Part shown: positions 5,689 through 36,700 of the stretch, in pieces
How the letters are laid out: each line of letters begins with the position of its first letter
Numbering within the stretch: the stretch's first letter is position 1
Assembly: GCA_049999805.1 (NCBI GenBank)
Contig: JBNGIO010006283.1
Coordinates: 234,742 to 298,741 of the forward strand
Reading direction: 5' to 3'
Length of the DNA stretch: 64,000 nt
Origin: Folioceros fuciformis
Lineage: Eukaryota
Program-made: the position numbers and the translations under genes
The notes under the pieces: generated by a model
Database searches by the model: none
The model's input: the letters and a program-made list of their open reading frames with translations, nothing else
What the model was told of the DNA's origin: nothing

Positions 5689-6209
5689 TTTATATTTCGT
5701 GTATAGACAAGACTTGGGATTGTAAAATTATCTACTTAATGAGATAAAAAGGTAACAGGAATGTGTGTTAGGAAAAAAACAAAAAACAAAAAAGTCCCAT
5801 ATATGGCCATTTCTAGAGGTGGCATAGCGATTTGAAAACGATGGGGGAAGCCCATTCGTAGAATCCCGCCTGAAGATAATAGGGTGCGATGAATAGGCCA
5901 TTGTGTAGCAGGCAATTAAGATTGGTTATTTCCCAAAGAAGAAGAAGATCCATCCTAAGTTAGAAGTGCATGAAGTTCAAGCGTGGAAGCTGAAGCTGGT
6001 TGGTACATATTTTGCCTTGGTACCAAGCCTTGGGGACCTTGGTGGTGTCGGGATGTTTGTGTAGACACAGAGGTGTGACACCAGTGGAAGGGGCAAAACG
6101 GGAAGGTGAAGGGGTTGAGATAGTAGATGATGCAGAGGTACTGGGGTCTGGGATAGATACGGAGTACCTGGGCTCCTCGACTGGTACCCAGGAGGTACCG
6201 GACTCCGGT

Positions 6210-7625
6210 ATGGATGCGTTAGAGCGTGCAGGTTTGTGGAGCGAGATACCTAATGATGTGCGGATCTTGATCCTTCTGAGGCTTCCGGCAACAAGCCTCC
6301 TGCGGTTTCGTGTCGTATGCAGAGACTGGAAGGATGAAATATCGTCGCCGGCCTTTTGGCATGAGCGGCAAGCATTACAGGGGGGAGAGAGAGACCGGAT
6401 GTTATTCGTCATAGGCGTCAAATCTGGGGTGCATGAATCCTCGTGTGTCTACGATCCCGCCTTCAAAACCTGGTACAAGCTCCAGCACTCTTCATGGCTG
6501 CCAAGCATGTTGCCCCAAATGGCGGAGCAGCTGCCACGTGATCCAGTACTTGCGTGGATGGAGCTCATACCATCGTATCCAGGTTTCGGCATGGTCATGT
6601 GCGTCAGGTCTTCCAGGGAGCAGGAAGCGGGGAAGATGGGAAACCTGTGTGTGGGCAATCCGTTGGCGAATTCCTGGCTCTGCCTGCCGCCTCTTCCAGA
6701 TGAATCAAAGATGATGGACTTGCGCGGCCTGTTCGTGGATGATAGGGCGCGATGCTTTAAGCTGGTGGCGTTGAGGGACAATCGGCAGGGTGCCGCGCAG
6801 AGGGACAGACCTGTCGTCACTTCTGTCTTCGATTCTGCAGTCTGGAGATGGTTTGAGACGAGCAGCCCCTTGGAAATCCCCGTGGGAGTGTTAGGTCGGC
6901 GGAGGAATCACCTCGGGGTGTTTCTGGGCCGCGTGCTTTACTGTGTCACCAGCGTCATCGATTCCTGCGATCTGGTGACATACGATCTGGAGCAGAGCAG
7001 GTGGGGGTGGATGCCTGTGGCCCAACCTCAGGATCACGGCAGATTAATTTTTTTCAGGTCCGTGATGAAGATTCGGGACCGGCTCTTGGGTCTGGCCGTA
7101 AGGCGGAACCTTCCTGCACCTACCCTTGAAGGAAAGCTGTCCGTCCAGATATGGGAGCTGAATTTGGAGCGTAGAGCCTGGACAGTGGTGGCCGACATGC
7201 CGCCCGGTATTCTCCTTACATTCGCAAGGAAAACCCTGCAGATAGCCATGCATGGGTCCCTTGGGGACGACGAGGAGGATCTCGTCGATGGCGACATCAA
7301 CTCCATCGCCAGGTTCAGCATCGAGTTTGCTTGTCGCATGAACATGGTGGCAGGCCAGGATGAAGTATACGTCTTGCAGGACCACCAGCCTCTGTCGACC
7401 GATCCGGACGACGAAGATAGCGACGACGTTGTGAAGCAGGATGTCCACGAAGACAAGATTGTGGCTGTCGATTTCCGCAACACGCCTCCGACCTGGTCTT
7501 GGCTTCCCTCTTACCCTCACTGTCCGAGTGGATGGAAAAGTTCCATGTGCGTCTGCGTCGATCCTTGCTTCCAGTTCGGCTCCTGGAAGGAACACGGAGA
7601 GTTGGTGCCCGACTCTAAGTCCTGA
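6210..7625 (+). CDS. Intronless F-box protein with kelch/FBA-like C-terminal region
   Basis: First ATG at 6210. F-box motif WSEIPNDVRILILLRLPATSLLRFRVVCRDWK, followed by YDPAFKTWYKL, VGNPLANSWLCLPPLP and IWELNLERRAWTVVADMP. Confidence 0.88.
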   Translation: MDALERAGLWSEIPNDVRILILLRLPATSLLRFRVVCRDWKDEISSPAFWHERQALQGGERDRMLFVIGVKSGVHESSCVYDPAFKTWYKLQHSSWLPSMLPQMAEQLPRDPVLAWMELIPSYPGFGMVMCVRSSREQEAGKMGNLCVGNPLANSWLCLPPLPDESKMMDLRGLFVDDRARCFKLVALRDNRQGAAQRDRPVVTSVFDSAVWRWFETSSPLEIPVGVLGRRRNHLGVFLGRVLYCVTSVIDSCDLVTYDLEQSRWGWMPVAQPQDHGRLIFFRSVMKIRDRLLGLAVRRNLPAPTLEGKLSVQIWELNLERRAWTVVADMPPGILLTFARKTLQIAMHGSLGDDEEDLVDGDINSIARFSIEFACRMNMVAGQDEVYVLQDHQPLSTDPDDEDSDDVVKQDVHEDKIVAVDFRNTPPTWSWLPSYPHCPSGWKSSMCVCVDPCFQFGSWKEHGELVPDSKS

Positions 7626-8684: not shown

Positions 8685-10229
8685 TCAACTGCTGAGTTGC
8701 AGCCACGGATCCACTGAGTGCAAACTTTTGTTCAAAAGACTCTTGTAAGGCAAGGTGGGGAGCCAGCTCCAGACTGCATGCGTTTCTAGCATGCCGACAG
8801 CCACAATGTCGACTATGTGGTCTAGATCCATATGGTCATGCATAATGTATACCTGGTCTAGCCCGGCCACAATCTTCATCCCAATGGCTAGCATGTGCGT
8901 GATATATTCCAAAGTTTGATTATGGCTATCCATGTGTGACAATGGGCCCATGAAGCGAGGGACCATGGCCACGGGCATGGCAGCCACCACCTTCCAAGTA
9001 ATGCTCGCTAGATCCAACTCCCATACGTGCACGCAAAATGCTATTTCTTCATAGCTAGGTACCCCCTGGGAGTCCACTCCTACAGCGACGCACAACAGTC
9101 GATCTTGTACGTTAACGGGCCCCTTACATGAAACCATTTGGAAGCCGGGAGGAATTGCCACATTTGACCAACTCCACATAGCCTGCTTTAGATCGTAGGT
9201 CAAGAGATTACACCTTTTGGTAAGGTAGTATAGCACAGTGCCCCTAAACACTCCTTGATGGGACTCGTTCTGGATGTTGTGAACGAAGCTTTCAGCCAGG
9301 TCAGGCACGTTCAACGTGCAGGTTGTCACGCTCCAGCCATCATGCATGGAATCAAATATCAAAGTCGAAATGGGTAAGGGAGGATGGCCACTAGATGGCC
9401 ATATCCTCTCCACCACCACCACCTTGAAGTGGCACATATTTTCGTCCACAAATATTCCCCGTACATCTTGGATCCCCAAGTTATTTGGGAGAGCCGGCAG
9501 GCGAGCCCAGGTGCGCGTCACAGGGTTGCCCAGGTATGGGACTGCGTCCTCCATCCCTGAAGACATGGACAAAAGCACACCGCCGCCCGCCGTCACTACA
9601 GGAAGATCCAAATGTGAGAAGAGTTGGAAGAGGTCGACGATTCTTGTGGAGAGCTCATCATGAAGCTTTGTCGGGGGCGAGTCACTATCGTAGAGCTGGT
9701 GTGATAGTTCTAGAGCATGTGGCGACAACTGGAGCTTATGCCAACAGTCTACGTCAGGGTCGTAGATACACGAGGCCATGCCCAAGTCGGGTGTCAAGCC
9801 TACCACAAACAACATTCGTTCTCGCGACGTCTCCAACTTCTCTTTTAGTAGGAATGATGATGATCCAGCCTCATTCCACGATGCACACACCGTGCGTGCC
9901 CGGACTAGGCTTGCCATAGGCAACTTTGCCAAGATGGTAATTAGCAAATCTGAACACAACTCGCTGCATTCCGTTTTGCTTCCGTTCGCATTCATTGAAC
10001 TAGGCTTCGCTGAGACTATCTTGCCATTATCTCCCTCCATGCGGTTGCATAACCACTCCTTCTCGTCCTCCAAGTCCGTCGACCCCGATTCCCTCGCTCT
10101 CTTAAACATTGTTTTAATGGTTGAACTAAGCAACTTAAAATGGGCCGATAATGAACACAACTTAGACATTGTTGTAATGGCTAAACTAAGCAACTTAAAG
10201 TGGACCGATAATGAACACAACTTAAGCAT
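8685..10229 (-). CDS. Intronless F-box protein, divergent paralog of 6210-7625; true start may be a downstream Met
   Basis: F-box SELCSDLLITILAKLPMASLVRARTVCASWN. Shares RMLFVVG, CIYDP, GNPVTRTWARLPALP, LLTYDL, VWELD..W.VVA.MP and WSWLP blocks with the upstream F-box gene. Confidence 0.85.
   Translation of the reverse strand: MLKLCSLSVHFKLLSLAITTMSKLCSLSAHFKLLSSTIKTMFKRARESGSTDLEDEKEWLCNRMEGDNGKIVSAKPSSMNANGSKTECSELCSDLLITILAKLPMASLVRARTVCASWNEAGSSSFLLKEKLETSRERMLFVVGLTPDLGMASCIYDPDVDCWHKLQLSPHALELSHQLYDSDSPPTKLHDELSTRIVDLFQLFSHLDLPVVTAGGGVLLSMSSGMEDAVPYLGNPVTRTWARLPALPNNLGIQDVRGIFVDENMCHFKVVVVERIWPSSGHPPLPISTLIFDSMHDGWSVTTCTLNVPDLAESFVHNIQNESHQGVFRGTVLYYLTKRCNLLTYDLKQAMWSWSNVAIPPGFQMVSCKGPVNVQDRLLCVAVGVDSQGVPSYEEIAFCVHVWELDLASITWKVVAAMPVAMVPRFMGPLSHMDSHNQTLEYITHMLAIGMKIVAGLDQVYIMHDHMDLDHIVDIVAVGMLETHAVWSWLPTLPYKSLLNKSLHSVDPWLQLSS
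10101..10229. repeat. 60-bp tandem duplication (just over two copies)
   Basis: 10101-10160 and 10161-10220 are near-identical, giving the repeated peptide KLCSLSxHFKLLS in the ORF N-terminus. Confidence 0.9.
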
Positions 10230-10489
10230 GGAATATAATCACTTTTCTTTGTACTTCATTTTCATGCATGGTGCTTTAGCATATATAGATGATCACAAAG
10301 CTTTCCTTCTGTTTTTTGAGCTAAATATATCCAAGTATACATTGCAAGGATATATTTATCTCGAACCCCTATATGTATAATATAGTCCTATTCGGCTCAT
10401 ATAACATATACATGTCAAAAGCCAAAGCAAAGGTATTTGGGGCACGAAGAGCAACCTTGGTCACCTTCGGCACTGGCGATGTTTGGGTG

Positions 10490-17523: not shown

Positions 17524-18865
17524 ATGGCTTCCCAGGAGCTAGACGCCGCTTCTCGGTACGTCAAACTCGTCAAGGAGCAGGACGCGCCGCTGGAGGACAT
17601 TCGTCCAGGGGAGCTCAACCAGCCAGTCCACGTTCCTCAGGTGGGACGCGGTCCCTTCACTATCCTGCTCTCTTCCTATCTGCTGATCCACTCGTATCTA
17701 CGGCCGCGACCATGCAGCGGTGCGGGATCTGTGCTTGCTGCGCCGTAGGACCAATTGGCCAATGCGTTCCCCGCTCCCTGCTGACCTACGAAACATTGCC
17801 TGGGGTTTCTGCTTCGCCGGCATGACAATTGCGGATTGGCTGCCATACCTCTGTGGAGGAGTGGTGGAGATCGTGCATGCGGGCATGTGATTTGGGTGGA
17901 ACAGGATGCCCTACACCCTCGACGCCTGTCCTCGTAACTTGTTCCTGTCTTTCTCACGCCTTGAACTTCTGTCTTGGAACATCAGCTTGTGGTCCATCGC
18001 TGCCGAGAGTGTGGTCAACCTCTACCAGACAGCTACGAGCCGCCTGGAAATGAGCCGTGGACTACGGGCATCTTTGGTTGCGCTGAAGACACAGATTCCT
18101 GTACGTGTGTCGGTGCTTTTCTTCACACTGTTGCTCCACATTGTCTCCAGTAGTTGTTCAGCCGTTTCACTGTGTTGCGCGCCCTCCTATGATGATGTAC
18201 CCCTCGCCTGTGTCCTCGGAAAATGTTTGGTAACAGGCTTGCAACCCTACGTTGTGACTCAACCATGCTTCGTGCAGGTCTGCTTGGGGCTTTCTGCCCC
18301 TGCGTCTTGTTCGGACGGAACATCGAGAAACTGAAAGAAGACGTCTCCTGGACAACTCCCTGTATTTGTCATGCTGTAGTTGTGGAAGGGGGTATTGGTC
18401 TTGGTCTTGCAACAGCCGGCCTTGTGCATGTCATCAATCCCAGAACAGTGTTTCTGGCCGTGGAATGTCTGGTCTTTGCGTGGTGGATGTGCGGGATCTA
18501 CACAGGCTTGTTCAGACAGGAGTTGCAGAAGAAGTATCATCTTGAGGTAAAGGCATTCAGAACCTCCTCCATGAATATGACGTGTGACAAGTGGGAAGTG
18601 CTTCACACTTAAGTTGCCTCCTAACCATGCCCCTTGTCTTTTTTTTTTTCTCTTGCAGAACTCGCCGTGCGATCCGTGCATGGTGCACTGTTGCTTTATG
18701 CACTTGTGCGCTCTGTGTCAGGAGCACCGGGAGATGCAGAGCAGATTAGCAGACAACCTTGTCATGCCCATGACCGTGATAAACCCGCCCGTTCCTCAGG
18801 AAATGAAGAAGACAGAAAATCAGCAGAACTCTTCTTACGAGCATGCTGAGATCCACGCTGTCTGA
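17524..18865 (+). CDS. PLAC8 family protein (cell number regulator 6-like), 4 exons
   Basis: MASQELDAASRYVKLVKEQDAPLEDIRPGELNQPVHVPQ|LVVHRCRECGQPLPDSYEPPGNEPWTTGIFGC|FCPCVLFGRN..RQELQKKYHLE|NSPCDPCMVHCCFMHLCALCQEHREM. Confidence 0.92.
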
Positions 18866-19173
18866 CAAAGACGGGCTTTTCGAGTTTTCGGCAGCCAGAG
18901 ACGTGAGTGGACATCCGCACAGATCTCAGAACCGACCCGGAGCCAGTCTCTCCGAGCCAGAGCTTCTCACACTTCAGCGTCCTTGTTTCCTTTTTATTTC
19001 CAAAATCATCTCTACAGAAAAAACTCTCGGATGGAGATGGCAACAGTTTGTCTAGTCTGATGCCTACGACGGAGGTGTGTGAGTTGAAGTTGTTCCTTAC
19101 AACCTTCAGGTGATTGATATCAGGAGTTAACCAAACTTGGCAAATACTATGCATACTATGACTATTGTGGCGG

Positions 19174-21553
19174 CTAGCCTATCACTGATTCCAGCCGAGG
19201 TGGGGGTGCACCCACAACCGAATTGCGCTGGCCGAGGCCCGGCCGTTGCCTTCTCTCGGCGAAGCCTCGTCCTCCAGGGTTCGTCTTGCGTCCGTCTGCA
19301 ATCTGCCCTCCACCGAGGACCAACGACTGGCCGAGAAGGATGGCAATCTGATTGGCCATTTCCTGTGCCTGGTCGCGTTGGGGGAAACATTCGGCTGGAA
19401 AGTGGCCAGCCAGCCAGAGATAGGTGGAAAGCAACTGATGTTGAGTCTCCAGAGCCATCATCTCCAGCTGTCTTGAGGTAGCCGGGGACCCTGCCATGTA
19501 CAGCTGCACAGGGATCTTTTGACTGTACGCTATTGCATACTTCTGAAGAGCATACAAGGCTTTAGGATCCCTGGTGTTCACAGGTGCAAAGCAGAAATAG
19601 AACCGGTCTTCCAATGACAAGCCTTGCACTTTCTCCAATACGGTTGCAATCTTCTTGAGATTGTCATGACGACATAAGAAATACGAACCTTCCAGTCGGC
19701 AAATCTGGGAAAACCTGTCCAACAGTGCACCAAAACCCAGATCTGGCAGCTGAGTGGCGAAGAGTTCCATCTGTTCAAAAACAGGGAACAGACCCGCTGA
19801 TGTCGACTCCTCGATGTCTTGCTTCAGACAATGGATTAGGTATGGAATGTCAGTTGAGTAAAAGCACGTTGCCATCCCTTCCGGATAGAGACTGCTCCTG
19901 CGTCCTGCCCTTCCAGCGATTTGCTTCACCATGGACGAGGGGATGGGTCCCTTCTCATCTCCATTGAACTTGTGTAAAGTGGAGAAGACCACTCTCCTAA
20001 TGTTCAAGTTCAGTCCCATGCCGACAGCATCGCTGGCCACAAGGACATCATACCCACTGTTGGCTTCGTTGAAGAGCTTCGCTTGCTGCGTGCGTGTTTC
20101 CGGAGGCAGTGCCCCATAGACTACACAACATCGATGGCTGGTGGCAAGCTCCACCTCCCGTTTAATTTCAAAAATGCCTTTCCTGGAGAAAGCAACGATG
20201 CAGTCTCCAGCCTGCACATTCCGAAAATCTCCTCTCAATGATAGCTCATCTACCACGAGGGGCTTGAATCTCACATATTCTCGTACCACCAGCTCATCCC
20301 CAGTCGCTGCACACAGGCTCTCCAGCAGACGAATGGCACTTGAATCCCCACACACATGCACCTCATCAGCTACCAACCCTAAGAACGCTCTAGTCCAAGC
20401 CCAACCCCTATACTCATCTGCCATCATCTGAACTTCATCTATCACAGCAACTTCCCAAGGCTGGTTCATGAAGGCCATCTCGACGGTACAAGCCAGGTGC
20501 TCAGCGAACGGCACATCCTTCTTTTCTTGTCCTGTGCGCAGGTTGCAGTACACCCCCTTAAGATTGACAAAATCGTATACTTCCATCGCCAGCAGTCTGA
20601 GAGGACTGCAATAAATCCCGTTCTTCGCCGCCATGAAGCGCTGAAGTGCATTGTACGTCTTACCACTGTTGGTAGGCCCACAGTGATAGAACACTTTGCG
20701 TTTCACAGCCCGAGCGAAGGGATACCACCCTTCAGGCTTGGTCAAATCAGCAGTGCTCACAAGTTCCCGATACCTACTGATCTCCTGAGGGTATGTCTCC
20801 ACACAATACTCTGCAAAAATTGGGAACAAAAACTCTTCCGCCTTGTTAGTAGGACCCATTCCGATCAAAAAAGCACGTAGCTCTCCCGAAGATCTCTTCA
20901 TGAACCACTTGCGGAAAGAGCTGCAAGCGGTAGGGAAAAACTTCGAATTCACATAAAGAGCAAGAGCCTGATCAGATGCCCACCTGGAGCCAAAGGAAAG
21001 AAAGTGTAAGCATGCGGCATTCTGCTACCAAAACCCATCGTGTAGAACAAGAGAATCGTAGAATTTCAACATACTTCCAAGCCAACGTGCATGCAGAAAC
21101 GGGGTCTCACCCTCTGCTGGCAAATCTTCGAAATATCTCTCCCAGCGAGCCCCTCTGCTTGCTCGGTACGCCCTCGAATTTCTCACACTCCTGCAGAGCC
21201 CTGAAAATTGCATGGGAATCCTGAAACTCGACTCGTCCTTTCCCAGTACTAGCTACACCATCTCCACCTTCAGTATTAATCATACTACCATTGTCCATTG
21301 CCCCTCGGGCTGCAGACGGGCTTCCATCCCTTATCCGCACTGATGCACTCGCGAAGTGCCTGTCCTGGTGACCACAACCCGCTCCGTAGAGAAAATGCCG
21401 CAGCTCGGACCTCCAATCATGCAAACCGGGATCTCCCCCAACATCACCACGTACAACCGAAACCTGGACCAGGAACTCGCGTTCCAATACACGACTCCGG
21501 GGTCGAGCCCGCCGGAGCAATTGGTGTAGGATCCTGAAGTGGACCCTACCCAT
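19174..21553 (-). CDS. SUV3: SUV3-family mitochondrial ATP-dependent RNA helicase (DExH18-like), 2 exons (21553-21111, 20983-19174)
   Basis: HCGPTNSGKT, YCSPLRLLAMEV, IDEVQM, YGALPPETR, ASDAVGMGLNLNI, KQIAGRAGR. GT-AG intron joins FASRG|WASDQALALYVNSKFFP in frame. Arg-rich presequence-like N-terminus. Confidence 0.92.
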
Positions 21554-21567
21554 CTCATCGAGGTAGA

Positions 21568-21999
21568 TCAAAAATCAGCCGCCCCTGCGGCAGCCAAGGC
21601 ACGAGGCAACTCAACGTTGTGCAGCGGAAACGAGAGCAATGAAGCTGCAGCCCGGAAGTTGGCCCTTATGAGGTCCAGTTGCTCGTTCAGCTGCGCTTGC
21701 TGGGGCCACACTAGAGGGAAAGTCAGTAGCTGCTGATGCAGCTGCCGCAACCTGCGCGCAGCCCTGTCAGGGAAGAGTTCTGGATGAAGCTGTTGGGCGG
21801 CCCGCCACACATCCAGGCAGCCGCGGTAGAAACCCACCTCCTCCCCTACCTCGAACCCTGTCTTCAACCCCACCTCGTAGCCTTCCTCACGTCCCTGCCT
21901 CACGCCCACTCGGAAGCCTTCTTCGTAGCCCGCCCGCACAATCTGGTCCTCAAGCCCAACTGTAGCCTCGAAGGGATCGTCGCTGTCTGTGCTCGTCAT
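21568..21999 (-). CDS. LTO1: LTO1/ORAOV1 family protein (Yae1_N deca-GX3 motif), intronless, 143 aa
   Basis: MTSTDSDDPFEATVGLEDQIVRAGYEEGFRVGVRQGREEGYEVGLKTGFEVGEEVGFYRGCLDVW (GxxxG repeats) and LDLIRANFR. Confidence 0.88.
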   Translation of the reverse strand: MTSTDSDDPFEATVGLEDQIVRAGYEEGFRVGVRQGREEGYEVGLKTGFEVGEEVGFYRGCLDVWRAAQQLHPELFPDRAARRLRQLHQQLLTFPLVWPQQAQLNEQLDLIRANFRAAASLLSFPLHNVELPRALAAAGAADF

Positions 22000-22173
22000 C
22001 GCTCCTCTCGCATAGCAACCCAATCCCGCCGCCACCTTCACCAGGCTTTGTCTAAAGGAATTAGGGTGGTAACCAGTTCAACCCCTTCACCTACTGTTGG
22101 AGCGAGCCGTACACGAGCACAGACCTGTGTTTAGCAGCGTACCAAGCTACGCTATGGGATAGTTGTGGTGATA

Positions 22174-23592
22174 ATGGTGAAGACGAAACCCCAAAAGCAG
22201 CACCAGGTACGGCAGCAGAAGCAAAAGGAAGGCGAGGTGAAGCTTTGCGCAACCCCGAGGCTAAACAGAGAGGACTGCCGTCGAGTAAAGCATGACTCCC
22301 AATTCTCAGACTGGAGGGTAATGACCCTGACACATGACCCGCAATGTTGGTTGTTGCTCTTAACGGAAGCTGATGCATGCTGGTCTCACAACGCGCAGAT
22401 TCTGGTTGGCGCTTCAGACTGGCAGGATCATGCTGCGGGAAGGAAGGTGTGGCTAAATACAGGCTGCATAATCTGCCCAGCCCCGATCATACGGGGCCTG
22501 GGGTGTACGAGCTTGGCATTTTCTCAAGAGTCTTGGCAGTTAGGGACAGACCGGTTCGGAGGATCAAGGGGGAGGATGTTGTGTCAGTGTATGTTGGGGA
22601 GGCGGAAAATGTTAGACAGAGGCTGCAGCAGTATGGGCGGGCGGGGTCCCATTTGGAAGAGTGCCCGGCGTTTGCAAGCGTGAAGGTGGCAGGACTAGGT
22701 ACAGGGGAGGGAAGGAAGGAATGAAGGCATCTTGTGGTGTGTTCCGTTGCAGGTTCAGTGAACATGACAAAATGGGGATTTCTGAGATGATTGACATGCT
22801 GAGCAGAGGTAGATGGCAAGGGTTCGGGGAGAGCCAGGGTGCTGCTCTCTGTGACTGACGATGGAGCTTGGCAAGGACCTCAGCTCTTCACCGGAGTGTT
22901 TGCCGAAGGGCGGTCTGTAGTTTTCCGCTGGGCTCTGGTGAGTTCTGTGTTTGCAATGCCAGGTTGCGCAGAGTCTGTCTAGTTGGCGGTTGGCCTAGTC
23001 TGAAGCAGCTCGTCCAGAACAGGCACAGAGCAAGGAGGCAGCCAAGAGCGTGGAAGGGGATCTGCTTGCAGTGTTCGATTATGCATGGAACAGAGACAAG
23101 AGCGGATGTAGAAGGCCGCACGATATCACCTCGAAGCTCCATATGGCAGAGCAGACGGTTTCCTGCTACCCTGCCTTCAGTTACCTTGCTCATCTCAGGT
23201 GGGTGATGTCAGGAAGGCCGCGTCGAGGTACTGCTGTTGCGGTGGGCAATCCAAAGGCCGCCTTGAAGCAGCATGAGCGGATCATGGCCTCAGTGGTGCA
23301 GGCCTCTGAAACTGTGAAGGTGAAGGAAACCAAGGCGGCCGCAGCACGGAAGGAAGCCAGTCCCAAGCTGCCAGCATCAGCCAAGCAGGTGGAACCAGGT
23401 AGTGTGCAGGGACTGACGGGCAAAGTGCAGGCGTCTTGAAGATCAAGATCAAGTGGAGGCAGTCTGGTTGCAGTACACGCTGTCTGTGGCGTTGTGTTGC
23501 ACGATGGGAACACATGCAATGTTGCCCCAAGGAATGGACGAAAGCGATGTCCTGCCCACAAAGGGATGAGAGTGAGATTGCGTAGGTCATGA
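22174..23592 (+). pseudogene. EFFECTOR OF TRANSCRIPTION (ET/HRT)-like GIY-YIG gene with a frameshift and a premature stop
   Basis: RLNREDCRRVKHDSQFSDWR|ILVGASDWQDHAA, then a frame change near 22438 to GKEGVAKYRLHNLP..PGVYELG..VYVGEAENVRQRLQQYGRAGSHL, FRWAL|..LLAVFDYAWN. In-frame TGA 23437-23439 precedes the ET repeat CGVVLHDGNTC...GRKRCPAHKGMRV. Confidence 0.78.
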
Positions 23593-26750: not shown

Positions 26751-29700
26751 TCAATTCACCTCACCGTGCCAGCTTTGCTCCAAGGCTGCATGCCCAGTCT
26801 CCTTTAGCTTAGTGCTAAGGTCTTCCAGCAATGCATATAGCGACGGTGCTTCCTGATGCTCCTGGTCCGCGACTCGAAAAGTGTGAACCTTCTGCTTATG
26901 CTCAATCCAACTTTTGCCAGGCTGCTTCCTTGCCCCTAAACTCTGCCTTAACTCAGACACCTCTTTAGCACACTCAAGCATGCCAGCATCAGCATATATA
27001 CTCGCCATCAGTACGTACGCTGCCGAATGTTTGGGCTCTAGAGCCACAGCCTTGTCGAAAAACTGCTTCGCCCTTCCCACGTCACGGTGCTTTCTGCAGG
27101 CATCCAGCAAACACATCCACACTGGCAAATCAGGCTCCATTGGCATGTGGGAAAGCAGCTCTTCTGCCTTGCTCAACTGTCCACATCGACCAACAAGGTC
27201 GATGACACAAGTATAATGCTCCACGTCCGGAGCTAAGCCATGTTCGCTAGTCATGCTTTCAAAGTACTCCAGGCCCAGGTCTACCATGCCAGCATGACAG
27301 CAAGCAGATAGGAGTGCCAAGTACGTGACCCGATTAGGACTCACCCCCGCCAGGCGCATATCGTCATAAGATTCGATACTGAGCTCACAATGTCCAAGTT
27401 GCCCATATCCTGCTATCAGTGCAGTCCATGACACGACATCGGGATGTGGCATTGAGTCAAAGATGCTCCGAGCAACTTCCATGCTCCCAACTTTGGTGTA
27501 TGCATACATCAAACTGTTCGCCACAGAGGGACGGCACTCCAACCCGCGCTCCACTATCCTTTTGTGGGTTTGTACACATATATCCAGGGCTCCAGTCTTG
27601 CTGCATGCTTGTAAAACAGCCACAAGCGTCGCCTCGTTGAACGTCACGCTTTCTGCTTGCATGGTTGCGTAAAGTTGTAAGGCCTTTTCCCCTTGCTCAT
27701 GCTGAACATAGCCTGCGATCATTGCATTCCATGCCACCACGTCACGCTGAGCCAGGTTGTCGAACACCTGTTCGGCATCCTGCATGCTACCACACTTTGC
27801 ATACAGACTAATCAAGCTACTCCCAACGAAGACATCTAATGCAGAAGCCCGGTAAGCCTCAGCATGTAATTCCCTTCCCTTTTGTAGGCACTCCTTCTTC
27901 ACATTCTGGCCATCCACGAAGGCATATGCCTCCCTTTCCGCAAGGCTCCAACATGCTTGAAGACTGCTGACAAAAGTGCGAGCATCTGGCCTGACCCCTT
28001 CCTCACGCATCTGCTGGTACATTTCCAATGCCTTTTCGGCTTGGTCCTGCTGTGCATACCCGGCAATCAGGGAATTCCACGTGATCACATTGCGCTGGGA
28101 TAATGTGACAAACACCTGTTCTGAGTCCTTCATACTGCCACACTTTGAGTACATGCTAACTAGACTGTTCCCCACAAAGATGTCCGATTCAAAGCCATGT
28201 ACTCTAACGCTGGCATGTATTGCCCTACCTTTCTGAAGGGATAATGCTTTGACAAGCTGGCCACCGGTCAGTACAGTTTCCTCCTTTTCTGCAAGGCTGC
28301 CACAGGACTGGAGAACACTGACAAAGGTCCGGGCATCTGGACTGACGCTCTCCTCTTCCATTTGGCTAAAAGTATGAAAGGCATCTTCGCCTTGGTCCTG
28401 TTCTGCATAACCTGCTATCATGGCATTCCATGCTACCACATCACGCTGCTGCAGTTTTTCAAATACTTGTTTTGCATCCTGGATGCTTCTGCACTTTGCA
28501 TACATGCTAATCAATGTGATATTTACAAATGTGGATAGACAGCCTCTTCCTGTAGCTGCAGCATGGATTTGTTTCCCCTTCATTAGGGAGCCCACTTTGA
28601 AACATTTCCCATCGCAAACCACGCTTTCTTCTTCTTCTGCGAGGTTACCGCACGCTTGTAGGGCACTAACAAAGGTTCGCGCATTTGGAGCGACCCTTTG
28701 CTCTTGCATCTCGTGATATAGGCGCCAGGCATTCGCACCATCACCCTGCTGAGCGTATGCAGCAAGCATGGCATTCCATGACACCACGGAGCGTTGCTGC
28801 AATTTGTCAAAAACGTGCTCTGCATCCTTGATGCTCCCACATTTTGAATACATGCTAACCAAAGTGTTTCCAACAAAAATATCTGATTCGAAACCCCCTT
28901 CTGTTGCACCAGCATGTATCTTCCTGCCCACTTGAAGGGATTCAATTTTGAAACCCTGCTCATCAACGTAAGTGCTTTCCTCCTTCTCTGCAGTGCTGCC
29001 ACATGCTTGAAGGGCACTGACAAATGTCCGGTCAGTTGGCCTAACTCCTGCTTCTTGCATTCGCCTAAACATCTGTAAAGCCTTCTCACCTTGGTCCTGT
29101 TGAGCATATGCTGCAATCATGACATTCCACGTTACAACATCATGCTGAGGCATTCCATCAAACACCTGCTGTGCATTCACAGTGCTCCCACACTTTGCAA
29201 ACATACTTACCAACGTATTTCTAACATACCAATCCGATTCAAACCCATGTGCCAGCACATCAGCGTGAATCCTGTTGCCCTCTTCCAGATCTCCCAGTTT
29301 GCTGCATGCTTTGAGTAAACTGACAAACGTGTACCTGTCAGGCTGCACACCTTCCTGCTGCATCTGGTCATAGCACAAAAGTGCCTCACGACATTTCCCA
29401 GCATTGCTATACCCTGAAATGATAGCTGTCCATGAAAATGCAGTTCGATGGGGCAACCTTTCAAACAACTGCACCGCATCTGCAAGGCTACCACAGTTAG
29501 CCAGCGTAGTAACCATGAGATCCCCCAAGGATTTGTTAGACTCTAATCCATGTTTTGCCAGCTGAGCAATGATCTGCTTAGCCTCCCAGAGAGCTTTCCT
29601 TTTCATACAGGCTTGTAGAAGCGTCTGGTAAATCTGTACAGAAGGCACACATCCCTGCTGGTCCAGATGGAGCAAACCAAGCACAGCCTTGTTAACTTGT

Positions 29701-32700
29701 CCTTGGTGACAGAGTGCCTCTAATGATCGAATGGTCAAACGACTTGACTCTTCAGGTTCAGATGTCTGTTGCACAGTTGAGACTGCTGCTGAAAGGGTCC
29801 CTACCTGCTCCAGTTTCCTGTTTAAGTATGTGAGAAATTTGTAGATCGTTGACTCTAGGTGATGTCTGTGGTCACCAACCATAAAGGTGTGCACCTCCTG
29901 ACCATGCTCGATCCAGCTCTGCCCGGGCTGTCTGGTTGCAGCCACACAATGCCTCAATTCATCTACTTCCTGAACACACTCCCACATTCCAGCATCAGCA
30001 TAGATATTAGACATGAGCACATAGGCTGCACCATGTCTTGGTTCTAGACCCACGGCAGCATCGAAAGCACGCTTTCCAAGTTCCACCTCACCGTGCTTTC
30101 GGCAAGCACCAAGCAGACACAACCATACGGGCAAATCAGGCTGCATTGGCACGTGGAGAAGTAAATTTTCTGCTTTGCTAAAGAGTCCTGCGCGACCAAC
30201 CATGTCAATAACACAGGCATAATGCTCCGTAGTAGCAGAAATGCCATGTTCATTCGTCATGCTCTGAAAGTACTCCAGTCCGTTCTCCACCATGCCAGCA
30301 TGACTGCATGCGGAGAGGACTGCCATAAATGCGACTCCATCTGGTCTGAAGCCTGCAGTCAGCATTTCCTCAAAAAGCTGCAAGCTTCTAATACAATCTC
30401 CAACACGGGAATACCCAGCAATGAGTGCACTCCACGACACGAGACTAGGCTGAGACAGTGAGTCGAATACAAGCTGAGCATCCACCATACTCCCACATTT
30501 GCCATACGCATTGATTAAACTGTTGGCCAGAGAAAGGTTGCACAGAAGTCCTCTTTCCACGATGCTCTCGTGGACGTGCATGCACATGTCTAAGGCTCCT
30601 GTACGGCTGCATGCGTCAAGTACAGAAATGAAGGTGGCTGTGTCTGCTTTGACTCCTTCTGCTTGCATCTGGGTATAAATTTGAAACGACTTCTCCCCTT
30701 GCTCTTGGTGAGCATATGCTGCTATCATGGAATTCCATGACACAACATCCCGCTGATACATCCTGTTGAACACGTGTTCCGCATCCTTGATGCTCCCACA
30801 TTTTGCATACATACTTATCAAAGTACTACCTACGAAAGCTTGTGACTCAAAGCCCCACAAAGTCGCATCAGCATGCACTGCCCGGCCCTCCTGCAAAGCC
30901 TCGACCTTCACATTTCTTCCATCCACCAGTGAATATACCTCTGTTTCTGCAATGCTACCACACGCTTGCGAAGCACTGACGAAGGTCCACATATTTGGCA
31001 TGATTCCTACCGCTTGCATCTGCTTATAACACTGCAAGGCGGCTCCTCCACGGTCTAGTTGGGCGTACGCTGTTATAAGGGCATTCCATAACACCACATC
31101 GTGCTGCAAGGATGTCTGAAATACATGCTCTGCATCTTTGATGCTTCCACACTTGGCATACATGTGGACCAAAATAGTGCTGACGGAGGTGTCTGAGTCG
31201 AGACCCATACTCACAGCTGTAGCTTGTATCTCCCTCACCTGCTGCAAGCACTCCATCTTTACATGCTGTCCGTCAAGCAGTGCACTTTCTTCCTTTTCTG
31301 CGAGCTTGCCACATGCTTGGAGGGCATTAACAAGCGTCCGCAGATCTGGGCTCGCCCCTTCCTGAGACATCTGCATATACAGCTGCATTGCCTTCTCTGC
31401 TTGGTCCTGTTCAGCATATGCCGCAATCATGATATTCCATGAAACCACATCACGCCGCTCCAGCCTGTCAAACGCCTTTTCTGCATCCTTGATGCTCCAA
31501 CAATTAGCGTACATACTAACCAAGGAATTGCCAACAACGAGGTTGGATTCGAGACCGTCTTCAATGACGGCAGAATGTATTTCCCTTCCCTTTTGCAAGG
31601 ACTCCACCTTCAGATATTGCCCATTTATGAATGCACTCTCCTCCTTTTCTGCGAGCTTGCCACACGCGTGGAGAATGCTGACATAGGTGAGTCCATCTGG
31701 CTTGAGACCTTCCTCTAGTAGTTGATAATAAATTTCCAATGCCTTTTCACCTTGGTCCTGCTGAGCATATGATGAAATCATCGCAGTCCATGCTACCACA
31801 CTGCGCTTAGGCAATCTGTCAAATAGCTGCTTGGCATCATTGATGCTGCCGCACTTCCCATAAACATTCACCAAAGTGCTTCCCACAAAACTGTCCAAGT
31901 CAAGACCCCTCTCAACAGCCCCGGCGTGTACCTTCCTTCCCTTCTCCAACGACGCCACCTTCACATACTGCTCATCCACAACAGTAGTTTCCTCAGTATC
32001 TGCAAGAGACCCACATGCTTGAAGTGCAGTAACAAATGTTCGAGCATTTGGCGTCATGCCCTCTAGTTGCATCTCCCAGAAGGTTTTCAAGGCGCTCTCT
32101 CCCTGCCCACTCTCAACATATGCTGCAATCATGGCATTCCACAACGCCACATCAGGCTGCGAAAATCTGTCAAACACCTCCTTAGCATCAGTAATGCTCC
32201 CACATTTTGCATACATGAGGACCAAAATGCTCCCAATAAAAACATCTGATTCAAGACCTCTCCACTTAGCTTTGGCATGGATTACCTTTCCCCACTGTAA
32301 GGCATGCACTTTCAAATTCTGGTCGCCTACAGTTGAAGTTTCCGTCTGTCTTGCAAGGCTGGCACAGGCTTGGAGAGCACTGACAAAAGTCCGATCATTA
32401 GGCGTAAAACCTTCCTCTTCCATTCTACAGTATATCTGCAAGGCCTTCTCGCCTTGGTCCTGTTGAGCATATGCTGCAAGAAGTGCATTCCACGACACCA
32501 CATTCCGTTGTGCCAATCCGTCGAACACCCGTTGAGCATCGATGATACTCCCACACTTTGAATACATGCTAACCAGAGAGCTCCCAACAAACACGTCGGA
32601 TTCAAATCCATGTGCCTTAATTTCAGAATGTATCCGCTTGCCTTGTTCCAGGTCCTCCAACCTGCTGCATGCTTTGACTAGGCTCACAAAGACATGAGCG

Positions 32701-33086
32701 TCGGGCTGCACACCTTCCTGTTGCATCTGGTCATAGCACAACAAAGCCTGCTGACACTTTCCAGCAGTGATGAACCCTGAGATGATGGCTGTCCAAGAGA
32801 GAACAGTTCGGTGTGATAATCTAGTAAAAACCTGCAGCCCATCTGCAAGGCTACCACAGTTCACGAGACTGGTGACCACCAGATTTCCTAGATATCTGCT
32901 GGCATCTAACCCGTGTTTTGTAAGGTGAGCTTGTACCTGCTTTGCTTCCGCAAGGGTCTTCTGCTTCGAGCATGCCTGCAATAATCTCCTGTACATCTCA
33001 ATGGACGGGACGACTCCCTGTTGATCCATACGGAGCAGAGCCAGTAGAGCCGCATCAAGCCGTCCTTCCTTGCATAGGACCTCCAT
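26751..33086 (-). CDS. Giant PLS-class PPR protein made of two tandem PLS-E1-E2-E+ units, no DYW catalytic domain
   Basis: Uninterrupted 2125-codon ORF (first ATG 33086) with repeated LVSMYAKCGS / DVVSWNAMIAAY motifs. E/E+ block (PDLPVW.CLL.ACRKH..AAYVLM..IYADAG..PG.SWIEH..VHTF) occurs both mid-protein and at the C-terminus. Confidence 0.93.
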   Translation of the reverse strand: MEVLCKEGRLDAALLALLRMDQQGVVPSIEMYRRLLQACSKQKTLAEAKQVQAHLTKHGLDASRYLGNLVVTSLVNCGSLADGLQVFTRLSHRTVLSWTAIISGFITAGKCQQALLCYDQMQQEGVQPDAHVFVSLVKACSRLEDLEQGKRIHSEIKAHGFESDVFVGSSLVSMYSKCGSIIDAQRVFDGLAQRNVVSWNALLAAYAQQDQGEKALQIYCRMEEEGFTPNDRTFVSALQACASLARQTETSTVGDQNLKVHALQWGKVIHAKAKWRGLESDVFIGSILVLMYAKCGSITDAKEVFDRFSQPDVALWNAMIAAYVESGQGESALKTFWEMQLEGMTPNARTFVTALQACGSLADTEETTVVDEQYVKVASLEKGRKVHAGAVERGLDLDSFVGSTLVNVYGKCGSINDAKQLFDRLPKRSVVAWTAMISSYAQQDQGEKALEIYYQLLEEGLKPDGLTYVSILHACGKLAEKEESAFINGQYLKVESLQKGREIHSAVIEDGLESNLVVGNSLVSMYANCWSIKDAEKAFDRLERRDVVSWNIMIAAYAEQDQAEKAMQLYMQMSQEGASPDLRTLVNALQACGKLAEKEESALLDGQHVKMECLQQVREIQATAVSMGLDSDTSVSTILVHMYAKCGSIKDAEHVFQTSLQHDVVLWNALITAYAQLDRGGAALQCYKQMQAVGIMPNMWTFVSASQACGSIAETEVYSLVDGRNVKVEALQEGRAVHADATLWGFESQAFVGSTLISMYAKCGSIKDAEHVFNRMYQRDVVSWNSMIAAYAHQEQGEKSFQIYTQMQAEGVKADTATFISVLDACSRTGALDMCMHVHESIVERGLLCNLSLANSLINAYGKCGSMVDAQLVFDSLSQPSLVSWSALIAGYSRVGDCIRSLQLFEEMLTAGFRPDGVAFMAVLSACSHAGMVENGLEYFQSMTNEHGISATTEHYACVIDMVGRAGLFSKAENLLLHVPMQPDLPVWLCLLGACRKHGEVELGKRAFDAAVGLEPRHGAAYVLMSNIYADAGMWECVQEVDELRHCVAATRQPGQSWIEHGQEVHTFMVGDHRHHLESTIYKFLTYLNRKLEQVGTLSAAVSTVQQTSEPEESSRLTIRSLEALCHQGQVNKAVLGLLHLDQQGCVPSVQIYQTLLQACMKRKALWEAKQIIAQLAKHGLESNKSLGDLMVTTLANCGSLADAVQLFERLPHRTAFSWTAIISGYSNAGKCREALLCYDQMQQEGVQPDRYTFVSLLKACSKLGDLEEGNRIHADVLAHGFESDWYVRNTLVSMFAKCGSTVNAQQVFDGMPQHDVVTWNVMIAAYAQQDQGEKALQMFRRMQEAGVRPTDRTFVSALQACGSTAEKEESTYVDEQGFKIESLQVGRKIHAGATEGGFESDIFVGNTLVSMYSKCGSIKDAEHVFDKLQQRSVVSWNAMLAAYAQQGDGANAWRLYHEMQEQRVAPNARTFVSALQACGNLAEEEESVVCDGKCFKVGSLMKGKQIHAAATGRGCLSTFVNITLISMYAKCRSIQDAKQVFEKLQQRDVVAWNAMIAGYAEQDQGEDAFHTFSQMEEESVSPDARTFVSVLQSCGSLAEKEETVLTGGQLVKALSLQKGRAIHASVRVHGFESDIFVGNSLVSMYSKCGSMKDSEQVFVTLSQRNVITWNSLIAGYAQQDQAEKALEMYQQMREEGVRPDARTFVSSLQACWSLAEREAYAFVDGQNVKKECLQKGRELHAEAYRASALDVFVGSSLISLYAKCGSMQDAEQVFDNLAQRDVVAWNAMIAGYVQHEQGEKALQLYATMQAESVTFNEATLVAVLQACSKTGALDICVQTHKRIVERGLECRPSVANSLMYAYTKVGSMEVARSIFDSMPHPDVVSWTALIAGYGQLGHCELSIESYDDMRLAGVSPNRVTYLALLSACCHAGMVDLGLEYFESMTSEHGLAPDVEHYTCVIDLVGRCGQLSKAEELLSHMPMEPDLPVWMCLLDACRKHRDVGRAKQFFDKAVALEPKHSAAYVLMASIYADAGMLECAKEVSELRQSLGARKQPGKSWIEHKQKVHTFRVADQEHQEAPSLYALLEDLSTKLKETGHAALEQSWHGEVN

Positions 33087-33724
33087 CTCACAGGCATTCC
33101 TGAAGTTGCAGAAAGTAGGGGTCGTCAAGCATCACAGAAGTCAAGAGCAGAACGTACATTCAAACGGGTACAGAACTTTCAAACAGGTCGCACCTTCCAT
33201 TCACAGATGTCCCAGGCGTTGACGACGCTGATAGGTCTAACATCCCAACCTGCACTCGAGCATCTAGCATGGCCTGGGTGCAGGTCCACCTTGTCGTCAG
33301 GCTGGTAAGTTCGTAACAGAAAATTTGTGCCACGCCCACACTCGGTGCCGATCGATGTTTGTCTTTCTATCTTCTGGTATGGCTCGCTGCTGCTGCCTGT
33401 ATCTGACGTCTTATTGAGGCAGACGTGCGTGGTCCGCGGTCATCAGGCTTTCCCTTGCTCCTTGAGAATAGGGGACAGTGTCGATGAAGGCATCCATCAC
33501 AAAAGACGCAAGGAATAGCCTCTTCCACGCCTTACGCAAGACTGGGACACGGGAGCATAAGGCACGTTCAACTTGGTCAGTCTGCTTTTCCTTTCCAGTT
33601 ACCGATAGCAGTGCTTGAGGATGTGGAGCCTGACGACAGAAGAAGCCAGTCTGAATGGTCCCGCTGTATACTGATGATGGGTAGATCCCGTTTTCTGCTT
33701 TGACAGGTACTTCCTGCTTATAGG

Positions 33725-36700
33725 GTGGTGGCGTATGAAACAGATACAGAGGTGGGAACCTGGAGAAACAGCGAAAAGGGGCAGCTGAGCTACGCTGTTG
33801 AAGCATTGGGCCTCCTTGTCCAGCAGGGGTCTTATGTCTCCCCACTTGTCTTTTACGAAGTTTTCAGGAGATCGAGAGCCAAGAAGGAACTGGTGGTGGG
33901 ACGATATATTCATGCTCTTGTTCTCAAGAGTGGGTATGAGTCAAACAAGCTCCTGGCCAACCACATCATCCGCATGTATGCGTCTCATGCGAGGTTGCAG
34001 GAAGTGCTGCAAGTATTTTCCAAAGTGGTTGCACCAAACGCTCACGTGTGGGCATCGTTCATCTTGGCGCATGCTGAACATGGGCATCCGATGCAGGCAA
34101 TAAAACTGTACTGGCAGATGCGACGGTCTGGGGTCCTACCGGATAACCACATCTTTGTGGCTGTTCTGAAAGCATGTGCCAGGGCAGCAGATTTGACTTC
34201 AGGAAGGCAGCTGCATGCGGAGGTGTTGAGAGGTACAACTGAGCCGGATGTGTTTGTTGGGAGCTGCCTGGTGGACATGTATGCGAAATGCGGGAGCTTA
34301 GACGATGCCCGGAGAGTCTTTGACAGCCTAGCCACGAGGAATGTTGTGACATGGACTGCCATGGTTTCTGGATATTCTCAGCATGGACTTGGGCACGAAG
34401 CTCTGATTCTGTACGCAGCTATGCACCAGGAGGACATCACTCCAGCTGACCACGTGATATTTATGTGCCTGCTGAAAGCATGTGCCAGCGTTGGCGCCCT
34501 ACGAGAAGGGAAACAGCTGCATTGCCAGATTCTGGAAAGATGCTTGGATGAAGATCCAGTGATGGGCAGCTCCTTGGTAGACATGTACGCCAAATGTGGG
34601 AGCCTGGATGATGCCCGCAAGGTTTTCGACAGCTTAGCCTCCAGGAACGTGATCACATGGAATGCGATGCTTGCAGGATATGCTGAGCACGGGCTTGCCG
34701 ATGAAGTTCTCTCCCTTTATGATACCATGCAGCAAGGAGGCATCACTACCCCTGACAGTGTCACATTCATGTGCCTCCTGAATGCATGTGCCAGTATTGG
34801 AGCCACAGGTGTAGGCAAGGAGATGCATTCACAGATCCAAGAGCAAGGACTGGACATCGACGACGTTCTTGGTAGCTGCCTGGTGGACATGTATGCAAAA
34901 TGCGGGAGCTTGACTGATGCCCGCCATGTGTTTGACAGTCTAGCCTCAAGGAATGTGGTGGCCTGGAACACGTTGCTGACAGGATATGCTCAGCATGGCC
35001 TCGGGCGCGAGGCCCTCAGCCTGTATCAACGTATGCAAGAGGAGGGCGTCCCTCCTGGTGAAATCACATTTGTATGCCTTTTGAAATCATGTGCCAGCAT
35101 TAAGGCACTGCCTGAAGGTAAGCAACTTCATTGTCAAATTCAGGAAAGAGGGCTGGAGGCTGATGTGGTCATTGGCAGTTGCTTGCTGGACATGTATGCC
35201 AAATGCGGGAGCTTAGACGATGCCCGCAAGGTGTTCGACATGATGCCCACAAGGAATGTGGTTACATGGAATGTCATGCTCGCAGCATATGCCGAGCACG
35301 GACTGGCACAAGAATCTCTTACACTTTATACAGCAATGCAACAGGAGAGCATCACTCAACCTGACCACGGCACATTCGTCTGTCTCCTTAAAGCATGTGG
35401 CAGCACTGGAGCTCTACATCAGGGGCAGCAGCTCCACCGCCAGATACAAGACAGGGGCCTGGACTCCGATCTCGTCATCAGTAACTCCCTGGTAGACATG
35501 TATGCAAAATGCTCGAGCGTCGAGGAAGCCCGCAAGGTGTTCGACAGCATGGTCACGAAGGACGTGGTAACATGGACAGTTCTGCTGGGAGGATATGTGG
35601 GGCACGGGCTGGGTCAAGAGGCCCTTCATCTTTATAAAACCATGGAGCAGGAGGGCATCGCTCTGGCTGATCATGTTACATTTGTCTTCCTCCTGAAGGC
35701 ATGTGCCACCATCGGAGCTCTGCATCAGGGGAGGCAGCTGCATGCCCTGGTTCAGGAAAAAGGCTTGGAAGGCAACGTGGTTGTGGGCAGCTGCCTGGTG
35801 GACATGTACACCAAATGCGGGAGCATTGACGATGCACGCCGAGTGTTTGACAATCTTGCGATCAAGGACGCTGTAACCTGGACTGCCATGATCGCAGGAT
35901 ATGCCGAGAACGAGCTCGGAGAAGAAGCCCTGGCTGTGTATTACAGTATGCTGCAGGAGGGGGAATGGCCAGCTGATCGTGTCACATTCGTTTGCCTGCT
36001 GAAGGCGTGTGCCAGCATTGCAGCCTTGGAGCCAGGTAGGCAGCTCCATGCCAGGATTGAGGAGGTGGGGTTGGGCGCTGACGTAGTTGTTGGGAACTGT
36101 CTTGTGGACATGTATGCTAAGTGCGGAAGCTTAGACGACGCCAGGTTGGTGTTTGAGAGTTTACCCACGCGGAATGTGGTGACCTGGAACGCCATGCTTG
36201 CAGGATACGCCGATCAGGGGCTCGGTGACAAGGCTCTCGACCTGTATGCACGTATGCAGGCTGAGGGACTCACTGCCGCGGATGCTGTCACATTCGTGTG
36301 CCTGCTCACTGCATGCTCCAGCACCGGAGCCCTTGGTTTGGGCAAGGAGCTCCATGCTCAGATTCGGGGACGAGGGCTGGAAGCCGATGTGGTTGTGGGA
36401 AGCTGCCTGGTAGACATGTATGCCAAATGCGGGAGCTTGGAAGATGCCCGCATTGTGTTTGACAGCTTGGGTAGCAGAAATGTGGTCACCTGGACTGCCA
36501 TGATCACAGCATACGCTCAGCACGGGCTTGGTGCAAAGGCCTTACAGTGCTTTGAAGAGATGCGGCTGGCTGGGGTGAAACCCAACGAGGTGACATATCT
36601 CTCGCTCCTCTCTGCATGCAGCCATGGTGGGCTGGTGGACCAAGGTGTGGAGTTCTTCACATCCATGAGCAGGGAGCATGGTTTCACTCCCAGTATTGAG

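Follow-up and report, generated by a model that had tools for sequence, protein, structure and literature searches.

In the hornwort Folioceros fuciformis, an open reading frame (ORF) for LTO1 (ORAOV1) stops 14 nucleotides before the start codon of an ORF for a SUV3-like helicase on the same strand. The question raised by this locus is whether the two proteins are made from a single mRNA. The locus lies in a 64,000-nucleotide stretch of contig JBNGIO010006283.1 (assembly GCA_049999805.1, positions 234,742 to 298,741 of the forward strand), which is called the window here and supplies all coordinates. A preliminary description, made from the letters of the window, had proposed one mRNA for both proteins, with the helicase reached by leaky scanning or reinitiation. 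Our analysis leaves the pair as a credible candidate for a functional bicistron, a reading that we favour only tentatively. The minus strand was read from 22600 to 18800, and the elements on which the argument turns are these:

21568 to 21999, minus strand: LTO1/ORAOV1 coding sequence; intronless, 143 aa, with the deca-GX3 (Yae1_N) region and a C-terminal ...ADF
21575 to 21577, minus strand: TGA in the helicase frame, which prevents the helicase ORF from extending further upstream without splicing
21554 to 21567, minus strand: inter-ORF spacer of 14 nt, containing ATG 21558, and AG at 21555-21554 after a pyrimidine-rich stretch
21111 to 21553, minus strand: DExH18/SUV3 exon 1, with start ATG 21553 and an Arg-rich N-terminus; residues 96-148 conserved with bryophyte and lycophyte DExH18
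20984 to 21110, minus strand: the one intron of the helicase gene, 127 nt, GT..AG, spliced out in the RNA contig
19174 to 20983, minus strand: DExH18/SUV3 exon 2, with stop TAG 19176-19174 and five helicase-family domains
18993 to 18998, minus strand: AATAAA, 176 nt past the helicase stop, a candidate poly(A) signal for both ORFs

The LTO1 stop codon is the TGA at 21570-21568, followed by the spacer and then by ATG 21553, the earliest ATG in the open helicase frame. That frame is open from 21574 onwards, with an in-frame stop 22 nt 5′ of the ATG. The coordinates given for this junction in the preliminary description all hold on re-reading of the sequence and the ORF list, as do its statements that the TGA at 21577-21575 blocks an unspliced extension of SUV3 and that the spacer contains an ATG out of the SUV3 frame (it is in the LTO1 frame). 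The four minus-strand ATGs at 21999, 21812, 21558 and 21553 lie in frames 0, 1, 0 and 2 relative to LTO1. A fusion protein made by readthrough was considered and ruled out: an offset of 446 nt puts the ORFs in different frames, so that simple readthrough of the stop codon cannot join them.

A chance pairing of ORFs is excluded, because both are conserved and each has hundreds of homologs. Two conserved ORFs on one strand, with a gap too small for a terminator and a promoter, are one feature of nuclear bicistronic loci of the Viridiplantae type, and this is the arrangement found here. Because there is no intergenic region between LTO1 and the helicase, the helicase cannot have a conventional promoter. 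Given a start at 21553 and the in-frame TGA just upstream, its leader must therefore either hold the whole LTO1 ORF, begin inside the LTO1 coding sequence, or splice past LTO1.

The identity of the first gene is clear. The ORF matches Pfam Yae1_N (PF09811, 2.2e-11) at residues 24-62, has 811 homologs at E≤0.001, and can be aligned end to end with LTO1-like proteins of plants, the best named representative being from Psilotum. Its coding sequence has 62% GC and a high coding score (0.29). The C-terminal residue is F, as in 89 of 119 full-length-like homologs (a further 8 have W), and the residue at -3 is A, not L, I or M. A C-terminal aromatic residue is recognised by the cytosolic iron-sulfur assembly (CIA) targeting complex, according to the available text of two reports (PMC4523923, PMC10245660).

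Of the 811 homologs, the best 150 include no fusion of LTO1 to the helicase, and a Pfam scan found SUV3 domains in none of the six proteins longer than 230 aa among them. As a separate observation, LTO1 occurs in four fused gene models (P0149, P0132, P0269 and P0139) with other partners: a Rieske/ring hydroxylase (Monoraphidium, 665 aa), FTCD_N (two models, from Hibiscus and Sinapis) and CHD5, behind which the LTO1 domain is placed. Each may be a genuine fusion, or else a model that merges two genes in very close tandem; in the latter case the models would hint that LTO1 often lies tight against a neighbouring gene.

The downstream gene is, by its domain order and by 60-72% identity to its relatives, a SUV3-like helicase of the DExH18 subfamily. 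The coding sequence (21553-21111 joined to 20983-19174) gives a protein of 750 aa, and exon 2 contains in order DExH18_N (with a match starting at profile position 15), DEXQc_Suv3 (2e-67), Helicase_C, Suv3_C_1 and SUV3_C. Identity is 72% to P0001, a Logan protein, 70-71% to mosses and liverworts, 65-68% to lycophytes and about 60% to seed plants, and many of these relatives are named ‘DExH18, mitochondrial’ or ‘SUV3L’ by their sources. The first 20 residues contain six R/K and no D/E, which bears out the earlier description of an Arg-rich, presequence-like N-terminus, although presequence-like here refers to composition alone. The sequence R-H-F|A-S at residues 65-69 presumably fits the plant -3R cleavage motif.

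The short spacer has meaning only if ATG 21553 is the start codon that is used. Residues 96-148 of exon 1 align directly 5′ of the conserved WxSDQ block with the proteins of Riccia (E = 4e-5) and Diphasiastrum (E = 1e-4), and exon 1 is therefore coding. For the extreme N-terminus, six full-length DExH18 N-termini were compared by permutation. Residues 1-22, compared in register from the first residue, resemble the annotated N-terminus of DExH18 from Marchantia paleacea (ungapped BLOSUM62 score 28, 7/21 identities, P = 1e-4), and Riccia DExH18 gives P = 0.006; the other four range from P = 0.04 to 0.84. The maximum score among 109 further DExH18 N-termini was 17. Other bryophyte orthologs have 300-450 residues before the conserved block, while this protein has about 100, and the only other in-frame Mets in exon 1 are residues 86 and 91. 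We have good confidence, from these comparisons of sequence, that ATG 21553 is the real start. A much later Met, which the preliminary description had named as one circumstance that would undo its proposal, is disfavoured by the liverwort similarity.

There is some indication that the two genes are also neighbours elsewhere. The closest relative of LTO1, P0274 (139 aa, 55% identity), is on a Logan contig of 12,559 nt, and P0001, the closest relative of the helicase, is also recorded on a Logan contig of 12,559 nt. The two are almost certainly on the same contig, and linkage of LTO1 and helicase within 12.6 kb is thus probably conserved at considerable divergence. P0001 starts inside the equivalent of the helicase intron and reads ‘...R-WASDQ’; the intron position appears to be conserved in this contig, which is unspliced.

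A metagenome scan with the LTO1 alignment gave at least 594 pattern matches, and seven loci among the matches listed encode a relative. They are angiosperm-like, with about 35% GC, are close to each other (five distinct proteins), and carry an intronless LTO1 with 4-5 internal Mets and 8-12 ATGs. They look monocistronic, with AATAAA within about 80 nt of the LTO1 stop in six of the seven, and none has a helicase in its flanks (downstream flanks of 241-4,982 nt). The pair is absent from all seven of these angiosperm-like loci and is not pan-plant.

RNA evidence came from one public sequencing run, the kind of which was guessed, in the form of a contig; such a contig gives no transcript starts, ends, strand or level, and rare variants are dropped from it. 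A single contig of 7,922 nt covers 18000-23500 without a mismatch and extends past both ends of that stretch. Four introns have been removed from it, three of them GT..AG introns on the plus strand and the fourth the helicase intron on the minus strand (joint 20980/21108, cut +3), and since the introns are absent the contig derives from spliced RNA. It is unbroken from 22316 to 21108, and no splice takes out the LTO1 ORF, its stop codon or the spacer.

The same contig joins at least four genes: PLAC8 (plus strand), the helicase and LTO1 (both minus) and a GIY-YIG gene (plus). Transcripts overlap or abut throughout 18000-23500. The contig gives no proof of one mRNA, because overlapping separate transcripts of both strands would look alike. 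Continuity across the junction is required by a bicistron, yet it is no evidence of one. For the original proposal of one mRNA for both proteins, unspliced RNA across the junction counts in favour; the joining of opposite-strand genes in the same contig takes away from its value as support.

On the minus strand between 22600 and 18700 the only AATAAA is the one at 18998, with none between the LTO1 stop and the helicase stop, and no TATA-like hexamer was found in the same interval. With a 14-nt gap, and with a canonical poly(A) hexamer only at the helicase 3′ end, the earlier remark that there is no room for a poly(A) site plus a promoter is upheld. The AT content is 0.37-0.47 from the LTO1 stop to about 21340, rises to 0.50-0.55 in a patch at about 21310-21250, and is 0.57-0.60 in the helicase intron. 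An efficient poly(A) site for LTO1 alone would be expected to truncate the helicase transcripts too, because such a site would be located within the same-strand transcription unit of the helicase. We consider it probable that LTO1-containing RNA continues through the helicase ORF.

If there is one mRNA, the second ORF has to be reached by ribosomes, and the start codons on the minus strand become important:

21996 to 22013, minus strand: 5-codon upstream ORF, ATG 22013; its stop TGA 21998-21996 overlaps the LTO1 ATG (AUGA)
21999, minus strand: LTO1 ATG; G at -3, A at +4, intermediate context
21810 to 21812, minus strand: the only ATG within the LTO1 coding sequence; U at -3, U at +4, weak; out of frame, opening a 29-codon ORF
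21331 to 21558, minus strand: ORF of the spacer ATG 21558; U at -3, A at +4, weak; 75 codons in the LTO1 frame, overlapping the helicase N-terminal region
21553, minus strand: helicase ATG; G at -3, G at +4, strong context

The order of these contexts from LTO1 through 21812 and 21558 to 21553 is the order that leaky scanning needs. The 5-codon upstream ORF is relevant only if transcription begins upstream of 22013; were it part of the leader, subunits reinitiating after it could bypass LTO1. Inefficient reinitiation is to be expected at the helicase ATG itself, given a 143-codon ORF before it and a spacer of 14 nt. No TURBS-type termination-reinitiation motif (UGGGA) was seen on reading about 70 nt before the LTO1 stop. 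Predicted RNA structure does not go beyond that of shuffled sequences either at the junction (21660-21500, z = -1.42) or at the LTO1 start (22110-21950, z = -0.60), so that no argument can be based on a hairpin or an element like an internal ribosome entry site, and Rfam gave no matches on the whole window.

Putting these observations together, we tentatively infer one mature mRNA carrying both ORFs, with leaky scanning and not reinitiation feeding the second. LTO1 and the DExH18/SUV3 helicase would form one transcription unit, with transcription starting 5′ of 21999 in a region of about 300 nt shared with the divergent GIY-YIG gene, crossing both ORFs, and ending past the helicase stop near the AATAAA at 18998. 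Translation of LTO1 would begin at the first good AUG. A minority of the scanning 40S subunits would bypass it, and with it the weak AUGs 21812 and 21558, to initiate instead at the strong AUG 21553, yielding the helicase with its Arg-rich, presequence-like N-terminus.

Several observations weigh against this reading, beside the fusion of opposite-strand genes in the RNA contig and the lack of a helicase at the seven metagenome loci. The LTO1 AUG has a purine at -3 and is not weak, so leakage should be modest, and ATG 21558 would intercept some of the ribosomes that do pass. The scarcity of ATGs upstream of 21553 is not significant: the LTO1 coding sequence has 1 against 3.1 in dinucleotide shuffles (P = 0.11), coding sequence plus spacer has 2 against 3.8 (P = 0.18), and a synonymous-codon shuffle gives P = 0.75. 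LTO1 has no internal Met, which is ordinary, being true of 23 of the 119 homologs. Neither ATG depletion nor the Met-free LTO1 has been kept as evidence for leaky scanning.

Two further points on the same side concern the N-terminal coding region and mRNA decay. Codon usage in exon-1 residues 1-95 gives only a weakly positive score (0.07, compared with at least 0.18 for exon 2), which fits a fast-evolving targeting region but is not decisive, and for residues 1-50 the frame of the 75-codon ORF scores 0.057 and the helicase frame 0.055. The LTO1 stop is about 460 nt upstream of the exon junction, with about 2.4 kb (unspliced) following to the helicase stop. In Arabidopsis such a layout marks read-through bicistrons for nonsense-mediated decay (NMD), and their second ORFs are rarely translated, as far as the accessible part of that study goes (PMC9768141). 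Exposure to NMD is not disqualifying, because the CDC26-TTM3 transcript is reported to be NMD-sensitive and translation of its downstream ORF helps the upstream product.

The main rival, which we regard as unlikely though a serious contender, is that there are two overlapping but separate mRNAs, with the helicase transcribed from a TATA-less promoter inside the LTO1 coding sequence, and LTO1 RNA either ending within helicase exon 1 or the intron, at a poly(A) site that is non-canonical, or reading through with its second ORF unused. The general overlap of transcripts in this region, visible in the contig that joins four genes of both strands, is what this rival expects. Plant poly(A) signals are degenerate, and the AU-richer patch at 21310-21250 and the AT-richer intron could accommodate one. 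The lack of significance of the leaky-scanning signatures and the poor translation of second ORFs in Arabidopsis read-through RNAs also suit it. It has to place a promoter, with no TATA-like hexamer at hand, within a 62%-GC sequence that scores strongly as coding, and to explain how an LTO1 poly(A) site would spare the helicase transcripts. The contig data have no loose ends or alternative paths that might represent separate transcripts, though contigs drop rare variants.

An improbable alternative, based on sites read by eye, has one promoter and alternative splicing: an intron in the leader would remove the LTO1 ORF, so that coding starts exactly at ATG 21553, and the unspliced isoform would encode LTO1. 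The candidate donor is at about 22091/22090 or at 22042/22041 (G/GTGAAG) and the acceptor is the AG at 21555-21554. The leader does contain two GTGAAG donors, which may be compared with the confirmed nearby donors GTGAGA and GTAATG, and a branch-like CTGAT (21578-21574) and the pyrimidine-rich stretch precede the AG directly before the ATG. Chance alone, however, will often put an AG ahead of an ATG and supply GT dinucleotides, and the RNA contig has no such joint, following the unspliced path here and the spliced path at the four real introns.

The weakest rival, that the helicase starts at Met 86 or 91 (ATG 21298 or 21283) from its own transcription start site downstream of LTO1, with 21553-21299 as untranslated leader, can draw on the weak codon score of residues 1-95, the tie between frames 0 and 1 over residues 1-50 and the failure of exon 1 as a whole to match any database protein (no matches among 86 candidates of 81-259 aa in the protein collection), but is most improbable, given that the N-terminus from 21553 resembles liverwort DExH18 in register and is Arg-rich with no acidic residue in its first 20, that a protein starting at Met 86 would have an acidic N-terminus without a targeting-like peptide, and that the ORFs would still be only about 270 nt apart.

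Having considered these rivals, we return to the bicistron and to how it compares with known systems. To our knowledge, land plants have very few validated nuclear bicistrons that encode two conserved proteins, with CDC26-TTM3 as the textbook case; only in chlorophytes are they common. The CDC26-TTM3 transcript occurs in land plants and green algae, is sensitive to NMD, and has a downstream ORF whose translation supports the upstream product, according to the available parts of two papers (PMC11892635, PMC9768141). The present locus is like it in pairing a small conserved ORF with a downstream enzyme ORF of the same strand, and in leaving no space for separate signals. It differs in that the proteins are others, and in its absence from the seven angiosperm-like LTO1 loci; for CDC26-TTM3 a single transcript and translation of both ORFs have been demonstrated, whereas LTO1-helicase is known from its sequence layout.

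In chlorophytes there are exclusively polycistronic loci such as TOM22-SDHAF3 and REX1S-REX1B, the latter with an inter-ORF distance of 14 nt; these bicistrons have a strong context at the second ORF and few, weak internal AUGs, and leaky scanning operates in vivo (PMC7896298, PMC11892635, in the portions available). The likeness to our locus is considerable: unrelated but conserved collinear ORFs, a very short inter-ORF distance, a strong second start and few weak AUGs. The differences are that Folioceros is a land plant, as the PLS-E pentatricopeptide (PPR) ORFs of the window also show, that the LTO1 start is not weak, and that the depletion of AUGs is not significant.

Read-through bicistronic RNAs are described at 271 loci in Arabidopsis in the available text of PMC9768141, and resemble the present case in deriving from tandem genes and in having a first stop followed by a long region with an exon junction. 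Unlike here, those genes have monocistronic mRNAs as well, and their intergenic regions are normal; the bicistronic RNAs are NMD substrates (same source). By analogy, the LTO1-helicase locus resembles the nuclear bicistrons represented by the chlorophyte loci and CDC26-TTM3, and may be one of that class, whose defining feature is a mature mRNA with both ORFs.

LTO1, Yae1 and SUV3 are not mentioned in the available main text of PMC7896298 and PMC11892635, the supplements of which may list loci. Judged by titles among the matches listed, the literature on bicistronic genes and on LTO1 gave no mention of an LTO1-SUV3/DExH18 pair, and the hornwort literature on polycistrons, again among the matches listed, dealt with organelles or transformation methods.

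A regulatory extension of the bicistron can be imagined, but is highly improbable as a description of the locus. Links of ABCE1 and iron with NMD, and of LTO1/YAE1 with NMD, are reported in the literature as far as it was accessible, and the connection from LTO1 to ABCE1 would follow, by analogy, the known Lto1-Yae1-Rli1 system in similarly partial sources. With the LTO1 stop about 460 nt upstream of an exon junction, the shared mRNA would be an NMD substrate, and both its decay and reinitiation 14 nt downstream would depend on ABCE1, matured by LTO1. Low LTO1 would then lower ABCE1 activity, giving poorer recycling, more ribosomes past the stop codon, weaker NMD and a stabilised mRNA. This stabilisation would, on the same very doubtful scheme, restore LTO1 and raise the mitochondrial helicase. 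In addition, the 5-codon upstream ORF could divide ribosomes between LTO1 and the helicase in the manner of GCN4.

Some neighbouring genes were also noted. The GIY-YIG gene at 22292-22724 (plus strand; PF19239, 1.9e-26) is divergent from LTO1, with about 320 nt between the end of its first exon and the LTO1 ATG, so that a very short bidirectional region is common to both genes. Its intron at 22318-22398, removed in the RNA contig, holds the only in-frame ATG of that ORF (22377); the spliced form has no in-frame AUG in exon 1, where ATG 22292 gives 27 codons. A PPR ORF at 26751-33131 (minus strand) runs for 2,126 codons uninterrupted, with an E motif at residues 1013-1075 and TPR/E-like matches near 2004-2057, and looks like two PLS-E editing-factor units in one frame. 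It adjoins a divergent PPR ORF of 1,125 codons with a C-terminal E motif (33704-37081, plus strand). Two intronless, convergent F-box ORFs lie at 5994-7625 (plus strand) and 8685-10238 (minus strand), of 543 and 517 codons stop-to-stop.

If the helicase is transcribed from inside LTO1, the locus would be an extreme case of a promoter in a coding sequence, which is less novel but still matters for annotation. If the bicistron is real, it would be a second, unrelated bicistron in a non-seed land plant, probably linked also in a distant relative, and the mechanism would be wider in embryophytes. It would provide a natural test of how a 143-codon upstream ORF coexists with NMD and downstream initiation, and would tie a cytosolic Fe-S and ribosome-recycling factor to a mitochondrial RNA-decay helicase through one mRNA.

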